NCBI GenBank assembly: GCA_000004695.1
Contig: CM000154.2
Location: forward strand, 1,984,001 to 2,048,000
DNA length: 64,000 nt
From: Dictyostelium discoideum
Taxonomy: Eukaryota
Reading direction: 5' to 3'
Shown: piece after piece, positions 1,593 through 59,732 of the stretch
How positions within the stretch are numbered: position 1 is the first letter of the stretch
Layout of the letters: each line of letters opens with the position of its first letter
Notes under the pieces: generated by a model
Seen by the model: only the letters and a program-made list of their open reading frames with translations
The model's database searches: none
What the model was told of the DNA's origin: nothing
Translations under genes and position numbers: made by a program

Positions 1593-4500
1593 ATGGGTAA
1601 AAAGAAAATTGATATAAATACAAGAGAAGATTTATTTTTATCATATTATAAAGAAATTGAAAAAAATAAATTTGATCTTTTAAAAATTTGCAGTGACAAA
1701 AATTTTTCAAAATCAAATTTTTTAAAAGCAGTTCACTGTTTATTTTCATTATCATATTTTTGTAAAATTAAAGATGAAAATGAAGAAGAAGAAGGAAAAG
1801 AAGAAGAAATAAATGATTACAAAGTTAAAAAAAGCACAACTGGTAATTATTACAGAAATTCCGAAGGCAAATTATTTAAAAAATCAAATGAAAAAGATCA
1901 AATAGATGATGTTTCCATATTTTATAAAAGATTACCAACAATCCAAGATTTTAAAGACACATATGACAAATAGTGGGTTTTTTTATTTTTTTTTTATTTT
2001 ATTTTTTTATTATTTATTATTTAATAAATTAACTTTTTTTTTAATTATTATTATTATTTATTTTTAAATTAGTGAAAATTGTTTAAATTCAGTTTATTAT
2101 ATTATTAGAAAAATTAAATTATTACATTTGGAATATTTTTGGGAAATTTTAGCTTCTTGTTATGGAACGATATCATTTATTAAATTTTTTAATATATTTT
2201 CAAATGAAATATTTTCACCAAGTGAAAATGGAGATTCAGTTTTTATAATGGTTGGAAAATTTTTTAGAAGAAAAGTAAGAGCAGAGACACATTATGATTT
2301 AATATTTTTAAAAATCATATTGGCCAACGCATCAATACCAATGATTTTAAAACTTGGAGTTAAAGATATAGGTAGATTTACAGAAAAGGAGGATATTATA
2401 GTATCATATTATAGAAACTTTTCAATAATTCATTCACTTAGATTTGATAATGTTAAAGAGTTTGCATTAGTTTATAAAACTTTAAAGAATAATTATCCAT
2501 CAAAAAAAAAAAAAAAAATTACACTTTTTGAAGAAAATGGGAAAATTAATGTTAAAACATCAAAAAAAGATTTAATGCTATTCGAATTTGTTTGTAAATT
2601 TGATTGTGTTAAAATTTTTAAGAAATATTTTTTACCAAAACCTCAAATTATTAATAATAATGATAATAATGAAATGTTAGAATGTATTAGTAGTGGATCA
2701 TATTCAGGATTTGATGAAAAGAGTAAACGTAAAATTAGAATTTTTTTTTCAATATGTTGCAGACAAATTTCACCTAAAATCTTAAAATGCATTGTCGATT
2801 ATGTCAAGGATGATATTGGTTTTTTAGATTTACAAAATAGGCAAGATATTTACATTGGAGATTCAGCACCTGAAAAAGTTTTATTTCTAAATTGTTTTTT
2901 TGGTAATCATAAAGAACAACGTGTTATAGATTTTTTTAATCTCCTTACATCCAAATCAATTATAATATGTAATACTATTAAAGAGAAACCGGAACTTTAT
3001 GATTATCGTTATATTACATTGTCAACTGTTGATTCTACATTTTATTTTTCTGATAGTCATAAAGGTGCTGATTTTGGTGTTTACACTGATGAGATTAATG
3101 TTATTATTAATAATGATGATATTGATTATGATTATATTGGTGATGATGATAATGATGAAGAAATAGAAGAAACAAAAGATTATGGTAGTAGTAGTAGTGA
3201 TATTGATGATTTTTATAATGTATTTGAACCAAAAGCATCAATGATACCAAATATATTGGATTCTTGTAGTTTGGAAATACTAAAAGCATATATTCAAAAT
3301 ATAACTGGAAATGGTTTATTCAAAATAAGTCCATCATTATTTTTAGCACATGATGTAACTAGATTAGTTAGAAATCCAAAACCAAAAACAGAAACTGTTG
3401 TTAAAATATTGGAATTCATTAATACAATTTCAAGACTTTCAGAATTATCAACCAACGGTGTTCCTTTCACTTTTTTAACTAATAGATTCGAAATTGTCAC
3501 TAGTATAATTATGTCATTACATGATGAACGATCTATTTCAAATTCTGTTGAACCAGTTCAATGGTTACGTGCACTTGCTCCATTTGTTTCAAATGATGAA
3601 ATGAAATTAATTATATACAAAGTTAGAACTCTTTACAACTATGAACCACATTCAAATGGTGAAATCAAATATACCGAATTAGTTAGATTATTTGATGTTC
3701 AATATCTTTTAACTAAAGGTAAATTTTCACTATCTCAATTTAATGGTTTTGAAACTTCAATTTTTTTAAATCCAAAATTACTTGATGGTACTATTAATTC
3801 AAATATTTTAAATTCAATGATTATTAAAGACAAAGAAAAACTAGACTTAAAAGAATTATTTTTTAAAGAAAAACCACTTTCAGAAGCTGAACTTAAAGAA
3901 AAATTTGAAATTGCTACAAAAAATGAAAAAGAGTTATTGGACCAATTAAAAAAAGAAAATGATGCTGAAAAATTAAAAAAGAAAAATAAATTAAAAAAAC
4001 AAAAAAATCAACAACAACAACAACAGGCTAAACAACAAGCTCAACAACAAAAACAACAACACCAACAAAATATTCAACAAAATTATGAAAATCAACATAT
4101 TGAAGACCAACGAAAATTTAACCAACAAACCAAAGGTCGACCTATCTCTCCTTCATCAATTCAAAACCAAAATTTAAATCCAACTTTATTACAAAATCAA
4201 AATCAAACTTCAAACCCAACACCAAATTTAGAGTCAACAAAAAAAGCAACACCGACAACAACAACAACAACAACAACAAATTCCAATACATCAGCAATTA
4301 TAAATGAAATTAAAAATCAAGATTTAAATCAACAACAAAATATAACAGAAAATATAAATGAAATATATGATGTTTCAATTGGTAAATTTAAATTTAATAA
4401 AAAAGAGTCAAATATATTGGGTAGAGGATCAAATGGTACATTAGTATTTAAAGGTATTTGGAATAATAGAATACCAGTAGCAATTAAACAAATGCAAAAG

Positions 4501-5336
4501 ATGTTTAACCCATTAATTAGTAAAGAAATTGAAATTTTAATTGGTTTAACCAATAAAAACTTAAATTTAGTTGGATACATTGATCAAGAAGAAGATGAAA
4601 ATTGTGTTTACCTTGGTTTAACTCTATGTGATGGTTCATTACAATCTTTATACGATCAATCAAAATTAAATGAATTTATTAATCAAAATAATAATCAAAA
4701 TAATAATAATAATAATAATAGAGTATTGGATTTAATTATTGGAATGATAAATGGTGTAATATTTTTACATGATCAAAATATAGTTCATAATGATTTAAAT
4801 CCAAGAAATATATTAGTAAAAGATAATAGATTAATAATTTCAGATTTAGGTTTAAGTAAGATGAATGTTAGTTCAACTTATAATTTCTCAACAAATGCAA
4901 TTCCAACTGGTCAAGATGGGTATCATCCTGTTGAAGTACTTTTAGAGAAAAGAAAAACTAAATCAGTTGATGTTTTTTCTTTAGGTTGTTTAATTTATTT
5001 TATAATGACAAATGGTGCTCACCCATTTGGTGATAAATTCTCAAGACTTCGTTATATCACTAAAAGCAAATACAATCTATCTCAATTATCAAATTTAAAT
5101 TTAGTGGCAACTCATTTAATTGAATTGATGATATCATATGATGAGAGTAAAAGACCGACCCTATCATCAGTTTTAAAACATCCTTTGTTTTGGGACAGTT
5201 TAAAGAAAATTAAGTTTTTAGAATCTTCTTTACGTTTATTGGGTGATCATGATTTTAAGAAATTCAATATCAATAAAATATTAATTAGTTGTAATAGTAA
5301 TAGTAGTAGTAGTAATAGTATTTGTAATAGTAGTAA

Positions 5337-5371
<35 letters not shown>

Positions 5372-5745
5372 GTAGTTGTAAAATTAGTAGCAGTAGTTGT
5401 TATTGTGTACCATTACCTTGGAATCAATCACTCGATTATCAATTAGTGGATTCTTTATCAAATCAAATTGAAAAAAAAGTAGCATCTTATAAATTTGATC
5501 AACTTCATGATTTAATTCGATTCATCAGAAATACTCTACAACATTATAATCAAATTTATAGAGATTTAAAACAAATTTTACCAAATAGTGATATTTTAGA
5601 GTCATTAAAATCACAACAGTCGGCTTTAAATTATTTCGAATCCAAATTTCCAACTCTAATAATTTTTTTATTTAATCATTTTAGTGCTATACCTGAAATT
5701 AAAAATTCTATCCATTTTTCAAATGATACTTGTTCAATTTTTTAA
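1593..5745 (+). CDS. IRE1/RNase-L-like protein kinase with C-terminal KEN (kinase-extension nuclease) domain, no luminal sensor domain (Dictyostelium irl family). Proposed exons 1593..1972 and ~2073..5745
   Basis: Seen in sequence: the main exon (ORF-track frame 2128..5745) contains a kinase core (GRGSNGTLVFKG..VAIKQM, HNDLNPRNILV, ISDLGLSK, GTxGYHPVE) followed by a KEN-like tail (HPLFWDSLKKIKFLESS...RFIRNTLQHYNQIYRDL). The 2128 'start' is TTG, so the real start is upstream. ORF 1593..1973 begins with a true ATG, and its TAG stop is split by a GT (GTGGGT) at 1973. AG at 2071-72 then restores the downstream frame (phase 2, TA+T). Exon 1 assignment is inference (non-consensus donor). Confidence 0.65.
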
Positions 5746-5889: not shown

Positions 5890-5962
5890 GGTTTTATAGT
5901 GTAATTGGTTAGCACCCAGGACTTTGAATCCTGTAATCTGAGTTCGAGTCTCAGTAGAACCA
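5890..5962 (+). tRNA. tRNA-Gln (anticodon UUG)
   Basis: Seen in sequence: GGTTTTATAGTGTAATTGGTTAGCACCCAGGACTTTGAATCCTGTAATCTGAGTTCGAGTCTCAGTAGAACCA. It has a 7-bp acceptor stem (GGTTTTA/TAGAACC), D arm, anticodon stem CAGGA/TCCTG with loop CTTTGAA (anticodon TTG at 5924..5926), T arm CTGAG-TTCGAGT-CTCAG and discriminator A. It closely matches canonical eukaryotic tRNA-Gln. Confidence 0.85.
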
Positions 5963-5991
5963 TTTTTTAAATATCTTAAAAAAAGGTTAAA

Positions 5992-6004
5992 GGTTCGATT
6001 CCGG
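5992..6004 (+). promoter_or_regulatory. external B box (ex-B) downstream of the tRNA gene
   Basis: GGTTCGATTCCGG lies ~30 nt 3' of tRNA-Gln and matches the pol III B-box consensus GGTTCGANTCC. Dictyostelium tRNA genes characteristically carry such an extra B box 20-40 bp downstream (established knowledge). Confidence 0.5.
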
Positions 6005-6200: not shown

Positions 6201-6250
6201 GAATTAAATAAAATTATTTTTTATTTTTTTCAACTTTCCTAAATTTATAA

Positions 6251-6303
6251 AAAATGAAGATTGTGAATGTTGAGTCAACATTCAACATTCACAATCTTCA
6301 TTT
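6251..6303. repeat. near-perfect ~50-bp palindrome (aaaaatgaagattgtgaatgttga-g-tcaacattcaacattcacaatcttcattttt)
   Basis: The arms atgaagattgtgaatgtt and aacattcacaatcttcat are exact reverse complements (18 bp) around a 12-nt centre that is itself partly palindromic. Confidence 0.6.
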
Positions 6304-7212
6304 TTTTTTATATGAAACATTTATTTTGATTCCTAGGCAAAGTAATTGAATTTTATTTGGAAATAAAAAAAAAAATAGTGAATGTTTTGGTTTTTTTTTT
6401 TTTTTTTAGAGTTTTTTTTTATTTGAATTTTTTTTTTTCAACTTTTGTCTCAAGCTTTTTTTTCAATTTTTTTATCAACTTTCCAAAGCACCCATCCAAT
6501 TTGGTTTACAATTTTTCAAATTTGGTTTTTATTTTTTATTTTTTTTTTATTTTTTTTTTTTCCTTTTTTTTTTTTTATTTTTTTTTTATATTTTTTTAAG
6601 GTAGATCTACATCCCTTTCAACCATACATCTCAATCATCAAAATATAACTCAAACAAAAATTATTATATAACAACATTATTAAAAAATTTTTAAAAATAA
6701 TAAATCATAATTTGGTTGACCTCCACCCAATCTTGATAACAAAAAAAAAAAAAAAAAAAAAAAAAAAATAAAAAAAAAAATAATTAACAAAATACAAAAA
6801 TTTCACCACACACACACCAAAAATTCTATTATTAAAAAAATATAAAAATAAAAATAAAAATAATTAAAAAATAATTAAAAATAAAAAAAACTGTTGAGGT
6901 CAACCCATCATCAACAAAATACCATATTAATAATATTCATTATATGTATAAATAATTAATAATTTTTTTTTTTAAAAAAAAAAAAAAAAATAAAAAAGTT
7001 ACATTTTCTCACACACACTCAATTAAAAAAATTTAAAAAATAAAAAAAACAATAATAAAAAATATATAAAAAAAAAAAAAAAAAAAAAAACATTTATTTA
7101 TTCACTCACCTTCATTTTCAGTCACTCACCCACTTCTCTCAACAATATATAAAAGTTAAAAAAAAAAAAAAAGCTTTCTAAATAAAAAGAATTTAAAAAA
7201 ACATTCACTCAA

Positions 7213-16008: not shown

Positions 16009-16594
16009 ATGCACCAAGGTAGCCCACCAAATAATAATCAAAAATCACCAGTGGCTAGTCCAAATACAGTTTTAAAACAAATTGAAAATGGAAAATTTAG
16101 GATTAATTTTACAGCAAAAAAAACAACAAACCCTGATGACAATATTACACTTGCTGACGATCCTTTAAATATTACCTCTGAGAAAGAAATAGAAGTTGGT
16201 AATAATAATAATAATTTAAATGAAAATTTTAAAAATAACGAAGAATCTATGGATATTGAAAAATCAATTAATAAAATTAATGGTGGTTCAAAAGAAAACG
16301 GTAGTGAAAACACAATTACAAATGGAAAAAATGAAAATGGTAATCATATAAATTCTAATGATTCAAAAAACGATAATTTAGAAAATAATAAAAAATTAAA
16401 TGGTAAAAACGAAGATGGTATGTATATTTTTTTTTTTTTTTTTTCTTTTAATCATTTTTTAAAATAAATTATATATTTTTTTTTTAAAAAAATAAAAATA
16501 AATTTAAAATAAAAAAAAATAAATCAAAAATTAAATAATAAAATCAAAAACAAATAAAAAATTAAATAACAAGACATAAAAAAAAAAAAAAAAC

Positions 16595-20189: not shown

Positions 20190-20245
<56 letters not shown>

Positions 20246-22805: not shown

Positions 22806-23411
22806 ATGAACACAAATGTAAGTTTTTTCTTTCTTTTTTTCTTTTTTTTTTTTTTTTTACTCACCTAAATTATATGTTGGTTTTAAAATGAAATTGAAAA
22901 AATAGAGAGTATTATTCTCAAAAGAGAATGTATTCGTTTACCCACCAGAGATTGAAAAGGGTATAAAAGGTACAATTTCATTATGTAGTTTAGATAAAGG
23001 ATCAATATTTTTATGTTGGATACCAGATATTGAAGAGAAAGAAGATGATCATTCATCATCATCATCATCATCGTCGTCAAATTTACAATCACCCAATGGT
23101 AAGAATCCATTAGCAGCATCGACAATCATTGAAATTGATGATCAAAATTCATGGGTAGTTAGAGTACATGTCAAAGAATTGAAATCAATTAAAAAGTATA
23201 CACCAAATATTGGTACTCCTTACATTATTATAACAAGTAAAAAAGGTACTGCTTTCTTTCCTTTCTTTTTTGAACATGGTGGCGTTAGAGAATTTTTAAA
23301 ATCATTATCTTCAATTATACATTTAAAAAAGTAAGTTATAACTATATATATATATATATAAATATATAAAATATATAAAAAATATATATATGGTATATAT
23401 ATATTAAAAAT

Positions 23412-23456
<45 letters not shown>

Positions 23457-24313
23457 AAAAGATCAAATTTAGATTCAAACTTTTTTACAGTTGTTGATTT
23501 TTCAGATCCAGTACAAAGAAGTTTATCAAGTATGAATTTATCAGATCATTTTTATAATAGTAATAATAAAGATGACTTATATAGTAGTAGTAGTAATAGT
23601 AGTAGTAATAGTGGTAATAGTAATAGTAGAAAACAAAAAGATCCTGTTATACCAGATTTTAATGATGATTTAACATTTGGTCATGATATGGATTTACATA
23701 ATCAAGATCAAGAAAAAGAAGATAGATATTCATTATTATCATCAACTAATCAATTAAAAAAAGCACAAGAAATTTCTGTATTATCATCACCACCCTCTTC
23801 TTCACATACAACTTCAATAAGTCCAACTTCAAATAAATCATCATCTTTTATTAATATTGGAAGTAATAATAATAATAACAACAACAACAATAATAATAAT
23901 AGTAGTGTATCATCATCACTTAGTAAATCAACAAATGGATTATCATTTTCATCAATATTATCAAGATCAACATCACCATCAGCTTCAACATCACCAATTC
24001 CAATTGAAAAATCAGGTAATAATAATGGTAGTAATAATAATAATAGTAGTAATATAACATCACCAATACCATCACCATCTTCTAAATTCTTATCAGCTAG
24101 TGGTGGTAGTGATAATGAAAATAATAGTAATAATACAAATAGTAATAACAATTCAAATAACAATGCAAACACTGGATCATTATCAACATCACCAACAAAT
24201 AAAAGAGCATTAAAACGTGAAATTTCATCAAGTATTTTTGATAATTTTGCAAAAGTAACACAATTAGCAAAATCTGCTCAAAAAAGTAAGTGTTTAATAA
24301 TAATTTATTTTTG

Positions 24314-24351
<38 letters not shown>

Positions 24352-25608
24352 AATATATTAAATATTTATTTAATTATAGATATTTTTGAAGAACCAGCAA
24401 AAAGAATTGATAATCATTTTAGAAATTTAATTGGATCAAAATCATCAATTGGTTCAAATTTATCACCACAAAATGCAAATAATCAATATTTTGATATATT
24501 GAATGAGAGTGGATCGTCATTGAATGCATCAAGTGATTATTTTACACCATTCAATATATCATCATTAAATTTCTCCATAGAGTTGGGAGCCAATAGAAGA
24601 GAGTGTAATCCAATGTCACCAAGTGAATGGTATTCCTATTTCGATGATGAAGGTAGAATTTGTTTAGCGAATCAACAGATTCTATTGAAAAAGATATTCT
24701 ATGGTGGTATTGAAGAATCAATTCGTCAAGAGGTTTGGCCATTCCTATTGGGAGTTTATTCATTCGATTCGACTTATTCCTCAAGAGAGGTTGTAAAATA
24801 TGAAAAAACTCAACAATATCAAACCGTTAAAAGACAATGGGAATCGATATCTTGTGAACAAGAGAGTAGATTCTCAAAGTATCAATCTAGAAAATTGTTA
24901 ATTCAAAAGGATGTTATTAGAACCGATCGTTTGCATCCAATGTTTATTCAGGGTGAGGATGATATCGATAGCAATGAGAATCTACGTCTAATGAGGGATG
25001 TCCTCTTGACTTATTCTTTCTTTAATTTCGATATTGGTTATGTTCAAGGTATGAGTGATTTACTCTCACCAATCATCTCGGTTATGGGTGGTGTCTCAAA
25101 AGAGGTGGAATGTTTTTGGTGTTTCAAAGGTTTAATGGATAGATTGGAGAGTAATTTTCATAAGGATCAAAATGGTATGCATCATCAATTATCTACACTT
25201 TCAAAGTTATTGAAATTCATCGATTTGGAACTTTACACTCATTTAGAGGCAAATAATGGTGGTAATATGTACTTTTTCTTTCAATCGGTTTTAATTTGTT
25301 TCAAGAGGGAATTCCCATTTCATGATGTACTCACACTTTGGGAAATACTTTGGAGTAATTATATGACAAAGAATTTACCAATCTTTATGTGTCTATCAAT
25401 TTTAATCAAAGAAAGAAATCAAATTTTAGATGAAAATATGGCTTTTGATCAAATCTTGAAATTAATCAATGAAAAAGCAAATAGAATGGATTTGGAAGAC
25501 ATTCTAGTCGATGCTGAGTCTATGGTTAGATATTTCATAATTAAACAAATGTCAATTGATACCGATAAAAGTTTAATTAAATTAAAAGAATCAATTTCAA
25601 TTTATTAA
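22806..25608 (+). CDS. TBC-domain Rab GTPase-activating protein (TBC1D15/Gyp7-like). Exons 22806..22817, 22906..23330, 23462..24285, 24380..25608
   Basis: Seen in sequence: a 4-codon first exon (ATGAACACAAAT) then GTAAGT; AG at 22904-05 opens RVLFSKENVFVYPPEIEKG...FFPFFFEHGG (TBC1D15 N-terminal domain); a GTAAGT donor at 23331 (phase 2); AG at 23460-61 restores the frame of ORF 23532; a GTAAGT donor at 24286 (phase 1); AG at 24378-79 joins the ORF 24499 frame. The TBC domain shows the IRTDR arginine finger and YVQGM glutamine finger. Confidence 0.7.
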
Positions 25609-25817
25609 AACAACTTATATAAATATAATAAATTTTTTTTTTTTTAATCATTTTATTACTTTTTTATTTTATTATTTTTTTATTTGTTTTTTTTAAAATT
25701 CTTTTAAGTAGAAATTTTTAAAATAGAAAAAAAAAAAAAAAAAAAATTTAAATATGGAAACTATTTTATTAAAACTAAAATTTCTATTTAAAGGATTAGA
25801 AATTTTTAAAATAGAAT

Positions 25818-25875
25818 AATTTATTTAAAAATTGACCCCCTCACATTCATAGTAAAATATTAAAATAAAATTAAT

Positions 25876-25934
<59 letters not shown>

Positions 25935-26429
25935 AAAATAAGGTTGTTTTAAAATAATTTAAAATAGTTTTAAAGAGAAAATATCTTTTTTTTTGTAAAA
26001 TAAAATTTAAAATTTATCATTGCTTTTATTAAAATTTTATAATATTTTATTTTTAAAATAAAAAAAACCTAAAAATTTAAGTAAATGTATACGTCATCAT
26101 ATTAAATAATTTTTTTTTTTTTTTAATAGTAAAAAGTGACACAATATTTGCAACATTCTTTTTATTTCTTTTCTTCAAAAAAAGTTCAGAGAAGATATTT
26201 TTTTATTGAAAAAAAAAAATGATTAGAATTTTCAAAAAAAAAAAAAATCTTTATATAAAAAATTGTTTTTCTTGATATTTCCCCATTTATGAAAGATCAT
26301 TGTAATATATTTTACAAATTTTGAGAAATTATGGGATGTTAAAAAAAAAAAAAACTCCTTTTTTAATACATTCTAACCCTGAAAAAATATTTAGGATATT
26401 TTTTTAGGAGTTTAACAAAAAATAAGATA

Positions 26430-26460
<31 letters not shown>

Positions 26461-26523
26461 TTAATTGTATAATTTTAATATTTTACTATGAATGTGAGGG
26501 GGCAATCTTTAAATAAATTAAAT
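25818..26523. mobile_element. putative non-autonomous DNA transposon (MITE-like, ~0.7 kb) bounded by ~48-bp terminal inverted repeats. No ORF
   Basis: Seen in sequence: aatttatttaaaaattgaccccctcacattcatagtaaaatattaaaa at 25818..25866 is the reverse complement of 26474..26523 (tttaatttatttaaagattgccccctcacattcatagtaaaatattaaaa) with 2-3 mismatches. The interior is AT-rich and non-coding. No clear target-site duplication was seen. Confidence 0.35.
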
Positions 26524-26766
26524 TCACCATCGAATATATTAAAAAAAAAAAAAAAAAAAAATTAATCAAAATTTTATTTAGAATTTTATTCTTTTATTTT
26601 TTTTTATACTTTTTAGATTTTTTTTTTTTCTTAACATAATTTAAATTAAAAAAGTTCAATATAATAATTTAATAATTCGAATAATAATACAAATAATAAT
26701 ACAAATAATAATAATAAAAATAATAAAATAAATTAATTTTAAAAAAAAAAAATTAATTGCAATAAA

Positions 26767-27573
26767 ATGAATAATAATGCTAAATATTCATTTATTATTT
26801 TTTTAATAATTTTAATTTTAAATTTTTGTAATTGCCAAAATTATCAATATTTTGATTTTACAGATCATTCAAAATTAAATACATATGCAATAAATTCACA
26901 AATGGATCAATGTAATGTTAACGTTTTTTTTATGGCCTATACTGAAAATAACCCTAATGGTCCACCAGAAATAATAAATTTTATGTCAAAAGGTCCAAGT
27001 CCTTCAATTTCTCAAAATGTTATCTCAAGAAACCTAACAACTGTTTTTTATTCAGTTTTGTTAACTTTTGAATTTGGTGATTTGGAAGCCACATTTTTTG
27101 TTGACGATTCATATAATAATATAATTTATAATTGTTCTTGTAAAAGTATAGATTTTTATTATTATTATTATTATCTTTCTTTTTTCTTTTTTTTTTTTTT
27201 TTTAATTTATTAATTATTCATTTCCAAAATTTAATTTTTAATTTTTTTTTTTTTTTTTTAAACAAAAAAAGAAATTAATATTACAGATTTATCAATAGAA
27301 TATCAAACACCAGTTTTTTATACAGAATATACTAGTTTTGCTACTGTCTTTAAAGTTAAAGGTCTTCAATATCCATTAATTTTGGTACACGCCTATGGCC
27401 TTTATTCAATAACACCGATGGATAATTATTATTATTTATTAACAATAAATTCAAATTATTTTTTATATGAATCAAATGATTTATTAATTTCAATTTTGTT
27501 CCCAAATGATGAATCACTTGATTTTTCTTTAAATTTTTTTAGTAAGAATTATTAATAACTGACATTAGTTTAT

Positions 27574-27614
<41 letters not shown>

Positions 27615-28387
27615 TAACTGATTTTTTTTTTTTTTTATTTTTTTAAAAATTATAGTATCTACATCAACATTATATAGTGACATAATTAGTGACTTTAAAT
27701 TATACCCAGAAACTAAAAATTATACTGAAATTGCATTTAAACACGATCCATTGGTTACTTTTAGATCAGTTTTTTCAAAACCAATTCCACAAGTGTTTTT
27801 ACTATCTCAATCATCTTTTTTATTCTTAGCCAAACCAATTTATGGAACACCAGGAAACTTGACATATATTGCTTCAACAGTACAGACAACTGTTCCTCAA
27901 AACATCTCTTTGTTTTATCAAATTCCAGACAACACTTTTAAAAATATTTTTATCACTGAATTAATAACAAATAGTAAGTTATCTTTTATTTTTATTTTAT
28001 TTTATTTTATTTTTTTTCTTTATTTAAAATAAAAAGGTATTAATAAGTAATTACTTATAGTTGACACAGGGTCCAACATAAACAACAGTTTTCAAAAGAC
28101 TTTTATTTATAATAATCAAATATTCACATTTGAGTTATCAGATTTATTCAATTATGATTCAAAATGTTACTTTTTTTCTGGTAATTATTTAGGAACGGAT
28201 AATTCATATACCATAGTCAATGGTTTAACATTTCCATTTGGATTTGTAAATGGAAATAATAATGTATACAAAATGAATTTTACTACATTATTACCATTTG
28301 GTTTTGGTAGTGGATTTATTCTATCAATACATGAACCAGTTTCGGGAACCTCGGTTTCTTATCAAAAAATTCCATCTCTAAATAGTA

Positions 28388-28483
<96 letters not shown>

Positions 28484-31400
28484 TAAATTATTATAGATAA
28501 ACTAACCAAAAATTTTTATTTTATAAAAAAGTTGTAAATAATTCATTAACTTGTGAAATAATTTCTTTTGAATCAATTTATTTAAATGAATTTAAATTTT
28601 TATTAAGATTTCATGTTGTTTCATATTATGGTATTTCTTTGATATCAATTCCAACATTTAGACCAACATTTATTGGCAATGAAAATTTAGTATCAGGTAC
28701 AATTTATAATGGAGTTTGGGAATATATATATTTTGGTGAAGAAATAACTTTGGATAGAATTAAAATCATTTCACAATCTGGTCAAATTAAAGAAATTAAT
28801 TGTGGTGAACCTTTTTCAATAATAAATCCAAAACAAATTATAACAATTTCTAAAATTAAATTTAATGGTAATTATTTCATATATATTAATTCTTGTAACT
28901 ATACCACCACCTCCATCGTCATCACCATAACCACACCATCACTACTTTAATATTTATTAATAATGTTTATTATTATTTTTATTTAGGATTTAATTATAGT
29001 AATGATTTAAGTGATATATCATTCTTGTATAATAATGTAAATGTAACTAATCAAATGGTTTCAAATATTATGTATATAAACTTTACAAATATTGAAAAAT
29101 ATAAATATCAAACTATTGGTTTATATTTATTGGATTCAAAATCATTAAGGGATGAAAATTTCGATGGTTCTTTAGTTGGAAATTTTGATAAAAACATTTT
29201 TGGAAGTAAATATTATTTTTCAGATTTTGACCCAATTAATAATAGATTCCAAGTTAAATTTAATATTCCAGCAAATATTTTACCTGGAAAGTTAGATTTC
29301 ATATTAGCATTTTCTCAATCATTACGTATATATAGTCCATCTCTACCTAATAATTTCCAATTAAATATTACTTCATCATGTAAGTTTTTTTTTTTTTTTT
29401 ATTTTTTTTTTTTTATTTTTTTTTTTTTTCAATAATTTATTAATTCAATTTTTATTATTTTATTATTAAAAAGTAATTGATATTCAAGGACCAATTTTCA
29501 CAAATATTATTAAAAATCCAAATGGTAAATTTGGATGGATTGTTACTATTGAAGATTCAATAAATGGTTTAGATTATGGTATCATTTCAATATTTGGTTT
29601 ATTGGATAGTTCAACATACAATTTCACAATAAAACCATCAAATGCAATTAATGGTAATAAATGGAAAGGAGATTATGAAATATTTATTCCATATGATTCA
29701 GTATCAAAATGTATTTCTCAACAATATATGATTAAATTTGTTGAGCTTTTTGATAGTCAAGGTAATAGCGCTACATTTATAAAATATTTAAGAACAAGAG
29801 ATGGTTCAACAATTGTTAAAACATTGACAAATCCATTTATTAATTTTATGAATGATATAAATATTATTAAAATTAATTATACATGTCCAAATGAGGTAAT
29901 TAGTTCAGAATCACCACCTTCATTAATATCATTCACAATATCAAAAAGTTCAATTGATGTAGGTTTGATTAATACCGTTGATTTTAATTTCCAAGTAAAT
30001 GATTTGCTTGGAATTAAAGATTACCAATATCCAATAGTTTATTTAACAACTAGTAAACTTGATATAATTGAATGTGTTTCAAATTTAACTTCAAAATTAA
30101 CAAATCAATTTAAATGTTCAATTGAAATTCCAATTGGATTTGGATATCCAAATGGAATTTTAGTATCTGTTTATGGTTTTATAAATAATGGTGGTTTTTA
30201 TAGTGGCTATTGTTCTCAACAATTACTTGAAATGAATTTTGCAAGTTTCATATCAACTAATCAAACCTATACAATTAATCAACCATATATTAAAAGTTCA
30301 AATAAATTTTCCAATCAAGGTGGTACTTTATGGATTTATGGAAGAGGTTTTGCAATTGATTCAATTGTTGAGATTAAATTTAAAGATAATGGTTTCACTT
30401 CATTTACACAACAACAAACTAATTTAATTTATTCAAGTGCTATTTCAATTGAAAATGTTAGATCAACAAATCAACCATTTGTAGTAATAGTTAAATCATC
30501 TTCAAAAATTTCAAATGAATTTATAATTAATCCAATTCTTTTCAATTTTAATTATACAGATCCATCATCTACATCACCTTTACCTACAAATCCACCAAAG
30601 AAATGTTTGGGTAATCCAGAATGTGGTGGTGTAAATAATGGTTATTGTAATAATGGTATTGGATGCGTATGCTACACTCCATGGGTAGGTGAAGATTGCA
30701 CTTCAAAAGTTATTGTTATTCCTCAGCCATCGATTAATACAACAAACCCTACAACTGATATACCAATTAATGTTACAGATTCAACTCAAAATAATCTATA
30801 TAGATCATTAATTTCATTAGTATCATTAAGAGAATTAGATTTCAATAATAAACAAGTAAAATTATTTAATTTTGAAAAATGGGTATATTCAGAAATTAAT
30901 AATACAACAAACAAATATTTAACTACAATCTCAAATAAAAATAGTGTTGGTGAAATAGTTGAAACGAATATCACAGTAGTATTACAATGGTTTGAAAAGA
31001 ATGATACAGTAATATTTGCAGGTCAAACATTAAGAATGAATCCATCATCAATTAAATATACAGTTAATATTACAAGTTATTCATTCGCTCAAAATCTTAA
31101 CCATCTTCAATTGATTATGTCTGCATCATTACAATCCTCTAAAACTGATGATATATGCTCTTCAAAATTATTTGGTAATACTAGCGATGGCGATAATTCA
31201 AACTTTATGAAACTAAAAGTAAATGATCATTCAGTATATGGTAGATTTATTAAACGTGCAATTGTTGATAATAAAATTATCTCTGTCGATAATAATATAT
31301 TAGATGATTATTCAACGGATACAAATTCAAATTCTCATACATCTGAAACTTTTATTGGTATCTCAATTCCATTTTATAACTATAATGTATTGGTTGATCC

Positions 31401-31650
31401 TGATTTTTCAGTTTTAGTCGATTCTAATCCTTCATCTTCAAATGATGAAAATTCAATTTGCACATCTTCTTCAAAATTATCTAGTGCTCAATTAGCTGGC
31501 ATTATAATTGGTTCGGTTGCATTTGCTGCTATATTAGTATTTATTGCATCATATGCAATTATTCAAGGTAGAAAAGAAAGAAAATATTTAAATGATATGA
31601 ATAATAAATTATCATCAATGAATAAAAATGGAACTTCTGGGGGTGATTGA
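26767..31650 (+). CDS. secreted/type-I membrane protein, paralog A: signal peptide, IPT/TIG-like domains, EGF-like module, C-terminal TM (Tgr-like surface protein family). Exons 26767..27145, 27272..27541, 27656..27973, 28061..28384, 28532..28867, 28987..29379, 29474..31650
   Basis: Seen in sequence: all six introns are phase 1, with GT donors (GTATAG, GTAAGA, GTAAGT, GTAATT, GTAATT, GTAAGT) and AG acceptors. The frames agree with ORF-track ORFs 26767, 27751, 28273, 28639, 29025 and 29602. QPYIKSSNKFSNQGGTLWIYGRGF is an IPT/TIG signature. CLGNPECGGVNNGYCNNGIGCVCYTPWVGEDC is EGF-like. GIIIGSVAFAAILVFIASYAII is a TM helix followed by a short basic tail. Confidence 0.6.
28386..28492. repeat. (TAT)n microsatellite (~35 units) filling intron 4 of paralog A
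   Basis: GTAATT donor followed by tattattattatt... up to the acceptor region; it is translated as poly-Tyr in ORF 28273..28500. Confidence 0.8.
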
Positions 31651-32291: not shown

Positions 32292-33470
32292 ATGAAACAA
32301 ATTTTAAAGTCATTATTAATATTTTTAATATTTTGGATAAACAATTTTTGTTTATCTCAAAGATCCTATGTTTTTTTAGACTATACAGATCCATCTACAT
32401 TAAATACATATCCTCCAACATCAAATGATGACCAATGCAAATATTTTATTAAAATTTTAGTATCAGGACAACTTCCTCCTGACTCATTAGATTTCGATGG
32501 AAATAATATAATATATCCAAATATTGTATTAGCCTCAAATAATGAAACAGCTTCTTTATTCACTGTTAGTTTTATTAGTGAATATGGGAATTATTTTATA
32601 TCTTTAGGTGTAAATCCTTGGGGAGAAATCTCCTATAATTATAGTTGTATAGGTATTTTTTAATTTTATTTTATTTTATTTTATTGTATTTTTTAATATA
32701 AAATGTGATATTAATTTTACTTTTTTTTAATAATTTAAATTTTATTTTTTAGAAATTGATAAATCAAAAATAAATGTTGAAACAAATAAATTATATTTTT
32801 CAGAGTATACAAATTTTGCATCATTTTTTAAATTAGATGGTTTAATATATCCTTTGGAATTATCATATGATCAGAATTTATATTCAATTTCAAGTTTAGG
32901 AAATTATTATTATTTAGTTAAATTCAAAACAATTGCATATATTAACTCTCAAACGAATCCATGGAGAGTTGATATTTTATTTCCAGGGTCAACAATGATA
33001 TCTATTTTTTTTAATGATTATAATGGTAAATGTTTTGAAAAACTAGAATAAATAAATAATATTATAATTTTTAAATAACTTTTTTTTTTTTTTTTTAAAA
33101 TTCCAATTCTATATAGAATCTATACCAGAAATAGATTCTCAAGAGATTGTAGATATTCAGTTACGTCCAACAAATGAATTTTATTCAGAGATGGGTTTTC
33201 AACATGGGCCATTAACAACTTTCAAATCAACTTCAAAAGCATTACAAACTCAATTATTTTTTTGGGATATGCAAGGTTCATTGCACTTAATGGCAAAGCC
33301 ATTATTTGGTATACCTGGTAATTTAACATACACCGTTTTAACTTTTCCATCTCTTCAAAATATAAATTATTCATTATCCTACCCAAATAATAATAATGGT
33401 TTTACAAAAGGTTTTGTTAATTCTCTTTTAACAAATGGTAAGTTAGCTTTTTTTTAAAAAATTTTATTTT

Positions 33471-33527
<57 letters not shown>

Positions 33528-36500
33528 TTTTTTTTTTATTAAAAAATTAAAATTAACACTTTTTTATATAGTTATATATGGAGGTAGTATTAATGATGGC
33601 GCTGCAACATTATCCCACTATTATGATAACAGTTCACTGTTAAATATTTACAGTGGAGGTTATTTTGGTTTAAAAAATTATAGTTCTAAATATTTTTATT
33701 ACAGTTTTCAACAACGTTCCTCAGAAGAAATAGGAGTTAGTTTACCATTTCCATTTGGATTTGTGTGGGGTAATAACAGTTATTACCATATGAATGTTTC
33801 AAAGTTATCATCATTATATTTAGCAGATGAATTTACTTTGATTTTTAAAGATCCTATTACTGGTCAAGAGATGAAATTAGCCAATATTATACCTGTTAAT
33901 ATAGGTAAATAAATTATTTTTAATCTTTTTTAATATTGAAATTAACCTTTTTACTAATTTATTTTTTTTCTTACAAGTCACAAATTATGATTTTCCTGAA
34001 ATAATAAATTTTCAAACGATTGATATTGGTAAATTCAAATTTATAGTAAGAATTAATATAAAATCACAATGGGGTGTGAATTTCTTTTCTATTGATCCAA
34101 TTGAACAAATTAAAATTATTATAAATCATGAACATTTAATTAGTGGTACAATATATAATGGAATTTGGGAATTTACACTTAATGGGTTGATTGAACAATA
34201 TGAAAAAATTACATTGGTCACTTTATGTGACAGCTTTCATTTGTTTTATTTTGGTGATTTATTCTCAATTAATTATCCATCAGAAACTATAAATTTACCA
34301 AAAACAAAATTTAAGAGTATGTAATTTACATTAAATAGATATTAAATTATTTAATTATTATTTAAAAAATATTAAATTTAAAATAATTATTTATTTATTT
34401 ATTTTTTAATTAGATTTCAATTACATTAAAGATTTGAAAAATATTTCTTTCTTTTATAATAATATTTCAGCAACAAATCAAACAATTTCAAATATTATGT
34501 TTTTAAATTTTACAAATATTAATGATTATAAAGATCAAACTATTGGTTTAAATCTAATAGATTCGAAATCTTTAAGAGATTTAACCTATGATAGTTATTT
34601 TGGAGCAGGTGGTAGTTTAAATGACGCTCAACTAAAACAATATTATTTTGCAGAGTTTGATTCAGTAAATAATCAATTCCAAATTCGTTTTAATATACCT
34701 GCAAATACAATTCCAGGAAGATTAGATTTTGTATTATCATTTTCAAACAAAGTTCATATATATAGTCCATCTTTACCAAATAGTTATCAACTATATGTAT
34801 ATCCATTAAGTGAGTTTTATTTTAGTTATTTACAAAAAAGAACAATTGTCTTATTTTATTTTATATTAATATTGTTTATTTTTTTTATTATTAAAAGATA
34901 TTGATATACAAGGCCCAGTTTTTACAAATATTATTAAAAATCCAAATGGTAATTTAGGATGGCTTGTTACAATTGAAGACAGTGTCAATGGTTTGGATTA
35001 TGGTGTAATTTCAGTTTATGGTTTAATTGATAGCTCGACATATAACTTTACAATTAAACCTTCAAATGCGGTTAAAGGTGATAAATGGAAAGGAGATTAT
35101 GAAATTTATCTTTCAAATTCTATTTGCATTACACAAGATTACATAATTAAATTTGTACAACTTTTTGACACTCAAGGAAATAGTGCTACCTTTATAAAAT
35201 ATATGGATTTATCAGATTCAGGTCCTATATTTTTTAGAACTATTACAAATCCATTCATATATTTTTACAATGATACAAATATTAATAAGATTTCCATTAC
35301 TTGTAAAAATGAAATTTTTGGTTCAAATTCTATACCACCACAATTATTATCATTTTCTTCCTCAACAAGCCAATTGGATGTTGGATTAATCAATAAAGTT
35401 GATTTTGATTTTGATTCATTTGATGATTTAGGTATTAAAGAAAATCAATTCCCAATTGTTTATCTTTCAACAAGAAAATATGAAACCATTCAATGTATTT
35501 CAAGAAACACTTCAATTTTTGATAAATCTACAAGATTTAGATGTTCAATTGAAATTCCAATTGGATTTGGATATCCAAATGGAATTTTATTATCAGTGTA
35601 TGGTTTTATAAATAATGGTGGTTATTTTAGTGGTTTTTGTTCACAACAATTACTTGAAATGAATTTTTCAAATTTTATCTCAACTAATGGCACATTTACA
35701 CTTGATCAACCATATATTAAAAGTTCAAATAAAATTTCAAATCTTGGAGGTAATTTATGGATTTTTGGTAGAGGTTTTGGAGTGAATTGTACTGTTTGGG
35801 TAAGATATATTGATGATATTGGTTTTAATCAATGTGTAACAACAACGATTTATTCAAGTTCAATTTTAATTGCAAGAATTAAACCAACCAATAACTCCTT
35901 TACCATTGTAATTAAAACTCAATCTACAAAGTCAAATGAATTCATCATCAATCCAATTGGATTTTATTATAATTATACTGCACCTACTTCACCTCCTTTA
36001 CCTACAAATCCACCAAAGAAATGTTTGGGTAATCCAGAATGTGGTGGAAGAAATAATGGTTATTGTAATAATGGTATTGGATGCGTATGCTACACTCCAT
36101 GGTTAGGTGAAGATTGTACTTCAAAAGTTATTGTTATTCCTCAACCATCAACAAATACAACAAACCCTACAACTGAAATACCAATTAATGGAGGTAATAA
36201 TACAAAGGATAATAATCTATATAGATCATTAATTTCATTAGTATCATTAAGAGAATTAGATTTCAATAATAAACAAGTAAAATTATTTAATTTTGAAAAA
36301 TGGGTATATTCAGAAATTAATAATACAACAAACAAATATTTAACTACAATCTCAAATAAAAATAGTGTTGGTGAAATAGTTGAAACTAATATCACAGTAG
36401 TATTACAATGGTTTGAAAAGAATGATACAGTAATATTTGCAGGTCAAACATTAAGAATGAATCCATCATCAATTAAATATACAGTTAATATTACAAGTTA

Positions 36501-37047
36501 TTCATTCGCTCAAAATCTTAACCATCTTCAATTGATTATGTCTGCATCATTACAATCCTCTAAAACTGATGATATATGCTCTTCAAAATTATTTGGTAAT
36601 ACTAGCGATGGCGATAATTCAAACTTTATGAAACTAAAAGTAAATGATCATTCAGTATATGGTAGATTTATTAAACGTGCTATTGTTGATAATAAAATTA
36701 TCTCTGTCGATAATAGTATTTTAGATGATTCAATAAATCCAGATTCAAATTCTCATAAATCTGAAACATTTATTGGTATCTCAATTCCATTTTATAGTGA
36801 TAGTGTATTGGTTGATCCTGATTTCTCTCTCCTTATCGATAATAGTCCCGCATCTTCAAATGATGAAAATTCAATTTGTGCATCCTCTTCCTCAAAATTA
36901 TCAAAAGTACAAATTGCTGGTATTATAATAGGTTCGGTTGGTTTTACTGCTGTGGCCATAATTTCAACTATTTACATTATTAGAAAAAGAAAAGAACAAC
37001 AAACAATTATAAACAAAATGAAGAGAGTTAGCCAATCAGTGAATTAG
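32292..37047 (+). CDS. paralog B of the same surface-protein family. Exons 32292..32652, 32753..33025, 33117..33437, 33572..33904, 33978..34316, 34414..34809, 34898..37047
   Basis: Same seven-exon, all-phase-1 architecture as paralog A. The frames agree with ORFs 32292, 32854, 33191, 34076, 34434 and 34993. It has a signal peptide MKQILKSLLIFLIFWINNFCLS, an IPT/TIG motif, the EGF-like CLGNPECGGRNNGYCNNGIGCVCYTPWLGEDC, and the TM GIIIGSVGFTAVAIISTIYII. Confidence 0.6.
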
Positions 37048-38180: not shown

Positions 38181-41051
38181 CTTTTTATTAATTTAATCAT
38201 TAAATAATTATTTTAGTGAAATTACATTGGGTAAAGGTTTTGATATTTCTTCATTGTCTAATTTTAATGATGTATCACATTTCAATAATTCATGCTCCAT
38301 TTCATTAAAAGTTTTGGAGGGATCAATATCAAGCTTCCCATTTTCTAAAGCAAATAATCTTTTAAAATCTGTGTATGTTACATTACCCGAATAGCTTTTT
38401 ATAATTTTATTTTCTATACTAATATTTTTTAAAAAACAGAACAATACAAAGCTATATTGATAAACCTTTGAATTTAATTGATTTGAGTAACTTAAAAATT
38501 ACATCTTTGTAAGTATTTTTTTTTTTAATAATAAATATAAAATCGAAAAATATTAATTTTCAATTAAAAGAATAATGTCAAATGTTTCAAATTTATTCAA
38601 CATTAACAACGAAATACCATTTACAAATTTTCCTTCAACAATTCAAACATTGTAGGTATTTTTTAAAATAAAAAAAAAAAAAAAAAAAATTTAATTTCTA
38701 ACAAACTCTTTGTGTTTAACCAAAAAAGCAATTTTTTGGATGGAAAGATTAACAGTATTCCTAAAAATATAAATGTAGAATTTATTTCATTTAGAAATAA
38801 TTCAATGAGTGGTCCAATTGGTAAATTAAGTCAATTTGGAAGCAATGTAAAAAATTTGTAAGTTTATAAAAAAAAAAAAAAAAAAAAAAAAATAAAATAT
38901 AGTAAATTATTAATTTTCTTTTGGATATTACGAAAAATTAGATTTATTTCAATGAATAAATTAAGTGGAACAATTGACGAATCATTTTGTGGCCTTCATG
39001 ATTATGATTTCTCAAATAATTCATTTACCAGTGTTCCCAAATGTTTTAGTTGTTTCTTCCCAAAAGATCCTAATTATGGTTCAGAATTAAAATCAAAATT
39101 TGTTACGAATCAATTTGATGCAAGTCAACCTCAAGGTAAGGTTTTTTTAATTTTTAATTTTTTTTTTTAAAATTTGTTAGGTTGTTTTTAACATTTCCTT
39201 TTTTAGACTGTAATGTTGTATTAAATTTAGTTTTAGAAAATGGATTATTAAAATTGTTTGGAGATTTCGTAGGATTATATAGATATGGATTCAATTCACA
39301 ACCAAACAATGTGGATTGGGTTTGGAAAAACTATACATATTATATTGGAACACCAAAACAAGGAACAACAATACCAGATCTTATTAGTTTTAAATATGAT
39401 TTCTATGAAACAAATTTCACATTATTTACATCATCAACCCCACCAAAAATTAAAACAGTTGAATCATTTCCTGCTTCAACCACATTTACATTCAATGGTG
39501 AATACTTTAATTATAATATTTCAGAGACAAATGTAAAAATAGGTAATAAAATTTGTAATATAATTTCAACAGAATTTTCAAAGATTGTTTGTTCAGTTGA
39601 TGAATTATTTGATTCGTCATTAAAAGATTTAATAACAACCATTCAAGTTGGAAATTTGAAACAACAAATAACTGTAACACCCTATATCATGAACACAGTA
39701 ATTCAATGTAATGATAGTTGTGATGGTGTTTGTTATACTTCCAATGGTACATGTGCTTCAATAGCGTTTTATGTTTCATCAGTTGTTCCAATTCAAGAAA
39801 ACACCGAAGGAACAGTACAGCTCTATGGATCATTTGGAGAAATTCATAATGATTTATCAATTACTATTGGTGGTTCTATATGTAATAAAACATATATTGA
39901 TGCTGGTTTAATTAATTGTACATTAAAAGCAGTAGGAAGTGGTATAAAACTATTGAATGTAACTCAAAATGGTAATTCATGGATTAGTAAATCAATGTTT
40001 AGCTATTTACCACCAAATACCGTTAAAAATTGCCCAAATAATTGTTTTTCAAATTTAAATCAAGGAGTTTGCAACACATCCCTAGGCCAATGTGAATGTT
40101 TCCAAGAATATAGTGGAATAGATTGTAGTCTCTATAGAGGTGGAAATCATCCAGAAACAACTAATGATGTAGATGAAAATACTGGTAAATCTACCTTATC
40201 AAATAAAGAAACTAATTATGAAATAGATATTATACAATTATTAGAAGTTGATATAAATGATAAAATCGTTAATAACTATTCTCTTGAAAACAATTGGAAA
40301 TTAAAAAATGTAACAAATAGTAAAACATTTTTCTTTTCCCAAAAAATTCAAAATTCAAATTGTGAATTAATTTCAATAATAGATCAAATTAATAGTGATC
40401 AAAGATTATCTTTTGCAGGTGTTGATTTTTATATTCAATCTGGAGCTATTAAATTAACCATTTCAATTAGTAACTATACATATTCAAGCTCTTTAAATAC
40501 ACTAAAACTTCAAATGAAAACAATTGCCAATCAAGAATCCACAAATTGTAATACCAAATCAACAGATATTGATACAAGTGGTATAGTTACAAATTCAACT
40601 TTAAATTATGTTACAATCAAAAAGAATAACAAAGTTTTAGTTGGTAGATTTATTAATCGTGTCTTATCAGATGGTAGATCTACATTTATCACTTCAAATG
40701 TTGTATCAACAAGTGATAAAGAATCTTTAATATTACAAGTTAATTTACCCCATTGTGTTTCAGAGTGTGTCATAGATCCAGGTAAAGTTTTTTTTTTTTT
40801 TTTTTTCCTATTAAAATAATTAACTATTATTAATGATAATTTTTAATATTTTCTTTTTAGATTTCTCATTACTAGTTAGCCCAGATTACATTGACAATTG
40901 TTCAACGAAAAGAAAATGGGTTATACCAGTTGCAGTTGTAGTTAGTGTAGTTGGCGCAGCATTTTTAATTGGACTTTCAATAATTATATATAGAAAGAAT
41001 CAAATAGCAATTAGAATTAAATTATCAACTATTAGATTATCAAAAAAATAA
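37392..41051 (+). CDS. related type-I membrane protein, paralog C, with plant-type leucine-rich-repeat ectodomain followed by IPT/EGF-like region and TM. Proposed exons 37392..37606, ~37713..38126, 38217..38372, 38440..38508, 38571..38651, 38729..38857, 38942..39135, 39207..40791, 40861..41051
   Basis: Seen in sequence: signal peptide MIKNCLIYSFIFSLLYY. The small exons encode LRRs (LSNLFNINNEIPFTNFPSTIQT; FLDGKINSIPKNINVEFISFRNNSMSGPIGKLSQFGSNVKN; MNKLSGTIDESFCGLHDYDFSNNSFTSVP). The large exon has IPT-like repeats and the EGF-like CPNNCFSNLNQGVCNTSLGQCECFQEYSGIDC. The last exon encodes the TM WVIPVAVVVSVVGAAFLIGLSIIIY. Donors are GTAAGA/GTAATA/GTATGT/GTAAGT/GTAGGT/GTAAGT/GTAAGG/GTAAAG with AG acceptors. 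The middle exons are the least certain. Confidence 0.5.

Positions 41052-55073: not shown

Positions 55074-55151
<78 letters not shown>

Positions 55152-56264: not shown

Positions 56265-59732
<3,468 letters not shown>

Follow-up and report, generated by a model that had tools for sequence, protein, structure and literature searches.

Does the pair of inverted sequences in the Dictyostelium discoideum spacer that separates a TBC/RabGAP gene from a ComC-like gene mark the two ends of a small transposon, or did it arise within the spacer by other means? The window, by which we mean the whole 64,000-nucleotide stretch of DNA that was analyzed, is extremely AT-rich, and among its genes are some that encode the ComC supersandwich domain, DUF7034, and DUF7035. 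A new element with terminal inverted repeats (TIRs), even one of low copy number, would be a small addition to the D. discoideum transposon catalogue, which to our knowledge has been regarded as all but finished since 2001, and it could be a place where small RNAs arise from a hairpin, beside a developmental signaling gene. If the pair is single-copy, it would be no more than a local rearrangement of the spacer and would have no broader significance.

The inverted repeat itself is confirmed as genuine. Its perfect portion is 31 nt long, with positions 25836-25866 on the plus strand matching the reverse complement of 26472-26502. The 30-mer CCCCCTCACATTCATAGTAAAATATTAAAA occurs exactly twice in the 64-kb window (25836-25865 on the plus strand and 26473-26502 on the minus strand), with no extra match in the window when up to 3 mismatches were allowed and zero matches in 100 dinucleotide shuffles. 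BLAST extended the similarity to 96% identity across 50 nt (26472-26520 against 25866-25817), and a gapped alignment carried the arms to 25817-25883 and 26454-26521 at ~91% identity, where they differ by three mismatches and three short indels, all outside the 31-nt core. The cores lie 637 nt apart from start to start, with 605 nt between them. The original prediction had described two inverted segments of ~48 nt some 650 bp apart, and these figures were right. The total unit spans 25817-26521 (705 bp) and is laid out, with its neighbors, as follows.

22806-25608, plus strand: upstream neighbor, a TBC/RabGAP gene (829 amino acids in the gene call of a second assembly)
25817-25883, plus strand: left arm, 67 nt, with its core at 25836-25866
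25884-25932, plus strand: A49 homopolymer, immediately inside the left arm
25933-26429, no strand: noncoding interior, 15% G+C
26430-26453, plus strand: T24 homopolymer, immediately inside the right arm and complementary to the left-arm A-run
26454-26521, minus strand: right arm, 68 nt, with its core at 26472-26502
26767-31650, plus strand: downstream neighbor, a ComC-like gene, the first of the tandem paralogues

The unit sits in a 1,158-bp spacer between two genes on the plus strand, 209 bp beyond the TBC/RabGAP stop codon (25608) and, on its right side, 246 bp before the ComC-like ATG (26767). Similarity between the arms ends abruptly on the outside, at the same position in both; identity peaks outward and in the core and falls off inward. 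Within the 64 kb, a k-mer scan that excluded low-complexity words returned this as the sole spaced inverted repeat of such size. The core, predicted to be unusually rich in G and C for this genome, does stand out at 30% G+C against the 8 to 9% of the flanking spacer (8.7% and 8.2% in the two pieces), with the arms at 16 to 19% and the interior at 15%. The AT-rich, noncoding interior was likewise described correctly: no open reading frame (ORF) of at least 40 amino acids is present anywhere in the spacer from 25609 to 26766, and the longest within the unit reaches 33 amino acids from a TTG start. Gene calls in the second assembly also leave the spacer without any gene. Rfam gave no match at the locus, either at the gathering threshold for the whole window or at E values up to 10 for positions 25500-26900, and ARAGORN placed no tRNA close to the inverted repeat. 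The interior holds one DUSE-like octamer on its minus strand, TCCCATAA (26336-26329); a noncoding RNA gene driven by it was considered and rejected, as the octamer has 4 matches in the window, and base composition alone would give ~4.

Several observations concern the flanking genes themselves. The ComC-like genes form a cluster (26767-31650, about 32293-37047, and 39182-40819) with the domains ComC_SSD, DUF7034, DUF7035, and DUF7949, and the first two are tandem paralogues with 80% identity over 2.6 kb. The core of the inverted repeat was not found in the spacer upstream of the paralogous ComC-like gene; a candidate relic of an arm at that place was set aside, its likeness being merely A/T-rich and without the core. 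When the TBC exon was used as a protein query, no dictyostelid sequence came back, and the top match was a plant sequence at 50% identity.

We tentatively favor the interpretation that the 705-bp unit is a solitary or low-copy non-autonomous TIR DNA transposon, or a relic of one, and we hold it with limited confidence. Such a transposon would have inserted into the spacer separating the TBC and ComC-like genes. Its arms of ~50 to 67 bp would be the ends bound and cut by a transposase supplied from elsewhere, its interior would be noncoding cargo, and the palindromic TA at each side would be the target duplication of a Tc1/mariner- or Stowaway-type element. The arms are highly nonrandom and ~91% identical, with a sharp outer edge and inward-decaying identity of the kind usual for TIRs. 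TA at both ends, the size, the lack of ORFs, and the gene-proximal site fit a MITE, and "MITE-like" is a fair label for the shape of the unit. The step in G+C content from 8 to 9% up to 15% at the repeat boundaries favors insertion of the whole 705 bp, as does the length of the spacer: without the unit it drops from about 1,143 to 1,158 bp to about 440 to 450 bp, like its neighbors (nearby same-strand spacers measure 437 bp and 642 bp). Past mobility, a superfamily, and a TA duplication are what we infer from these features.

Searches for further copies bear directly on this interpretation. A 10-mer of the core, with one mismatch allowed, yielded no further copy or half-copy in the 64-kb window. 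Scans of JGI metagenome and GTDB contigs with exact 20- and 21-mers returned zero matches and then four, and these four are chance matches, judged so because they lack flanking similarity. A full-text literature search for the arm sequence returned cattle primers only. The repeat thus amounts to two copies across the window, metagenome, and GTDB scans, a count that agrees with a local, nonmobile inverted duplication, in which the right arm and its A/T run (~70 to 120 bp) were copied in reverse ~500 bp away. The copying would have occurred by template switching during replication, or through a templated or reverse-transcribed copy captured at a staggered break; the interior would then be native spacer, and no family would exist elsewhere. 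We consider such a duplication only slightly less likely than a TIR element, and several features are well accommodated by it. Each arm ends inward at a homopolymer, A49 on the left and the complementary T24 on the right, where switching or priming would come naturally, and the composition of the interior is spacer-like. The distance of ~500 bp between the arms is, however, long for a simple fold-back, and the G+C step at both outer boundaries, together with the spacer length, favors insertion of the whole 705 bp over duplication of one arm. Furthermore, no second such duplication was seen in the 64 kb; since the repeat is the only one of its kind there, local inverted duplication is not common in this stretch.

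The boundaries of the unit were then weighed for signs of insertion. Every combination of left and right boundaries was scanned for a target-site duplication, and none of at least 5 bp was found around the 705-bp unit outside the repeat. Absence of a duplication around the whole unit is also what a local duplication would leave. The only flanking direct repeats in the boundary scan were the palindromes TTTAAA, TTAA, and AATT, which give no information because, as palindromes, they fall within the inverted repeat. The dinucleotide TA stands on either side of 25819-26519, which fits insertion of Tc1/mariner or Stowaway type but is uninformative because the DNA is 90% A+T. The original prediction had proposed target-site duplications as a check; the scan gave TA, TTAA, and TTTAAA palindromes as the sole candidates. 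A piggyBac-like reading (TTAA followed by CCC...) was also rejected: the TTAA is 6 to 7 nt off the C-run, and the inverted repeat runs past it.

Neither a partner nor a polymorphism was found. The window's 15 large ORFs contain no transposase, integrase, or reverse transcriptase domain. The one other assembly compared, GCA_054883475.1 (chromosome CM142511.1), was located through an exact protein match to a single-exon gene of 604 amino acids and provides a 21.8-kb stretch that is 99.66% identical. It has the 705-bp element at the same site, with differences only in homopolymer lengths (the A49 run is 11 nt shorter), and there is therefore no insertion polymorphism between the two assemblies. 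GCA_054883475.1 also lacks one nucleotide in exon 1 of a Cupin_8 gene (window position 16018), which puts its called product out of frame; a mistake in the assembly of one or the other sequence is the probable cause. Trinucleotide microsatellites lie within ORFs of the window, namely (TTG)n at 55074-55150, (AAC)n at 56938-56990, and (GAT)n at 20190-20245, and the (GAT)n tract in the 604-amino-acid gene may explain why the exact protein matched one assembly only.

Taken with the preferred TIR reading, these results cut both ways. The non-autonomous DNA transposon structure that was originally proposed holds for its inverted ends, its 705-bp size, and its noncoding character, while the signs of mobility are unsupported in the 64-kb window. 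Against a TIR element stand its solitary occurrence in the 64 kb, the lack of an informative target duplication or of a transposase in the window, its unchanged presence in the second assembly, and an interior that resembles ordinary homopolymer-rich spacer. Glockner and colleagues are said to have noted in 2001 that D. discoideum transposons tend to cluster together, and a unit standing alone among genes is unlike such clustered elements. The 705-bp unit is thus a fairly ordinary transposon candidate and an unproven one.

A feature of the left arm points in another direction. An 8-bp direct repeat, TTAAAATA, stands on either side of the arm and its A49 run, at the following positions.

25806-25813, plus strand: first copy of TTAAAATA, 3 nt upstream of the left arm
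25933-25940, plus strand: second copy of TTAAAATA, right after the A49 run

The pair encloses the left arm and its tail as a target-site duplication would. Retroposed or templated insertions are recognized by just this combination of short unit, long A-tail, and flanking duplication, which here points to insertion of the left arm alone, as expected under a local duplication. An 8-bp repeat around the left arm and its poly(A) is not predicted by the MITE model, so that the TIR reading must count it as coincidence. In a loose control, the 8-mer following an A-run recurred within 100 nt upstream in 16 of the 110 A-runs of at least 15 nt in the window; chance recurrence right at the arm boundary is therefore roughly a few percent, a figure to be read with the several configurations that were examined in finding the bracket. 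Strings resembling TTAAAATA are also frequent in the spacer (at about 25718, 25860, and 25950), and the status of this 8-mer as a common spacer motif weakens the case that it makes for a local duplication. A 20-nt direct repeat, TAGAAATTTTTAAAATAGAA, occurs twice beside the unit, at 25709-25728 and 25797-25816 (88 bp apart); its second copy adjoins the left arm and includes the first copy of TTAAAATA.

The same tail and flanking repeat raise the possibility that the inverted arrangement is accidental. Two independent tail-to-tail insertions of one short poly(A)-tailed retroposed sequence would produce it, a non-LTR retrotransposon or a cellular RNA having supplied its 3' end as the source. Each arm does end in a long A-run on its own strand (A49 and A24), and the left copy has its 8-bp flanking direct repeat. 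For the right copy, a 5-bp duplication, AATAT, is possible if the arm extends ~12 nt further 5', although this was picked out by eye and is doubtful. D. discoideum non-LTR elements of the TRE5 and TRE3 groups integrate beside tRNA genes, within about 50 to 150 bp, whereas the window's only tRNA gene (5890-5962) is 20 kb away from the unit. The two arms share nearly the same starting point, which independent 5' truncations would hardly produce, and two such insertions within 600 bp, with none elsewhere in the 64 kb, would be improbable. Long A-runs are moreover common, with 110 of at least 15 nt in the window, and we know of no source element for the arm plus A-run sequence. On balance, we regard two retrocopies as an unlikely origin.

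Downstream of that tRNA gene, a tRNA-Gln(TTG) at 5890-5962, comes an external B-box-like sequence, GGTTCGATTCC (5990-6000), the arrangement described for Dictyostelium tRNA genes, and no TRE element is evident beside the gene. On its upstream side, a long IRE1-like ORF (2128-5745), in which protein kinase and Ribonuc_2-5A domains are combined, stops 145 bp short of the gene. A hairpin (6249-6305) lies ~290 bp beyond the tRNA-Gln gene on the downstream side, with a 27-bp stem that includes one G-U pair and a 4-nt loop, reading AAAAAATGAAGATTGTGAATGTTGAGT/CAAC/..., and with a predicted RNA folding energy of -34.5 kcal/mol (z = -9.15). The supplement text of two miRNA papers did not contain it; a miRNA-like hairpin missing from the annotation, a terminator, and a transposon remnant are all possible identities. 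Kinship between this hairpin and the arms of the 705-bp unit was considered and dismissed, as the two share 7-mers only, which we judged to be chance.

We also asked whether the inverted repeat might be maintained for a function, as a hairpin-RNA locus or as a pair of protein-binding sites. In the hairpin version, a stem of ~90 bp would feed the Dicer small-RNA pathway. In the binding-site version, the G-rich TGTGAGGGGG, which resembles G-box/CA-element half-sites, would act on the ComC-like gene 265 bp downstream. The predicted RNA fold, mainly the terminal stem, has an energy of -163 kcal/mol, compared with -101.5 +/- 9.1 kcal/mol for shuffles (z = -6.8), and would count in favor of function if the unit is transcribed. 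The 31-nt core has also stayed perfect while adjacent positions changed. A perfect stretch of 31 nt in a 67-nt alignment of 91% identity is nonetheless weak evidence of selection, because the differences fall in slippage-prone A/T tracts. There is precedent in D. discoideum, where thug-S yields miRNAs (PMC4894637, PMC6161686). The core was absent, however, from the supplementary text of the Dictyostelium/amoebozoan miRNA papers searched (PMC6161686, PMC4894637, and PMC11014262), a source that may omit some miRNAs, including those derived from thug-S; the word "thug" itself did not occur in the supplementary text of one miRNA study. The lack of an Rfam match at the locus and of any such site upstream of the paralogous ComC-like gene likewise speaks against a function. 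Altogether, we think it very unlikely that function is what has maintained the repeat.

A transposon origin and an RNA product could also be combined. Read-through by RNA polymerase would let the arms pair, together with the A/U runs, into a stem of ~90 bp, and such a read-through stem would be a plausible Dicer substrate. We can thus imagine, as a long shot, that the unit belongs to an uncatalogued low-copy Dictyostelium MITE family whose read-through produces ~90-bp double-stranded RNA and from it small RNAs, as in thug-S. If this were true, the unit would be a young small-RNA locus of transposon origin, lying a short way upstream of a ComC-like cell-signaling gene.

Comparison with known systems shows both likenesses and differences. 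It shares with MITEs of the Stowaway and Tourist types TIRs of tens of base pairs, a length below 800 bp, and an AT-rich noncoding interior, as well as a location near genes and possible TA flanks. Unlike MITEs, it is solitary in the 64 kb, with no informative target duplication and no partner in the window, and one of its arms has a flanking direct repeat and a poly(A) tail of its own. Truncated at the 5' end, poly(A)-tailed retrocopies of TRE type resemble the left arm in being short, with a long A-run and a flanking direct repeat; they differ in that no tRNA gene lies within about 50 to 150 bp of the unit, as it does for TRE elements, and in that both arms of the unit start at the same base. 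The inverted-repeat siRNA and young-miRNA loci of plants and animals would have in common with the unit a long, near-perfect duplex and a loop of several hundred nucleotides.

Within D. discoideum, the DNA transposons Tdd, DDT, and thug make up 0.5%, 0.9%, and 0.1% of the genome, respectively, for a total of 1.5% (PMC5633606). Tdd-4 and Tdd-5 (Ginger2) are, like the proposed transposon, D. discoideum cut-and-paste elements with inverted ends. They are 3.8 kb long, with inverted repeats of 260 to 297 bp and 5-bp target duplications (PMC2836005), and membership of the unit in this group was rejected in view of its 705-bp length, its 67-nt arms, and the lack of a 5-bp flanking duplication. The small DNA transposons of this species are thug-S/thug-T and DDT-S (Glockner et al. 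2001, cited in PMC5633606). With these the unit would share the presumed D. discoideum host and the class II type that the original prediction suggested. thug-S is multi-copy, carries an intron-containing gene, and can yield hairpin-derived small RNAs (PMC4894637); the unit differs from it in being noncoding and solitary in the 64 kb. Should the unit prove to be a transposon, it could well be a member of one of the known families, thug or DDT.
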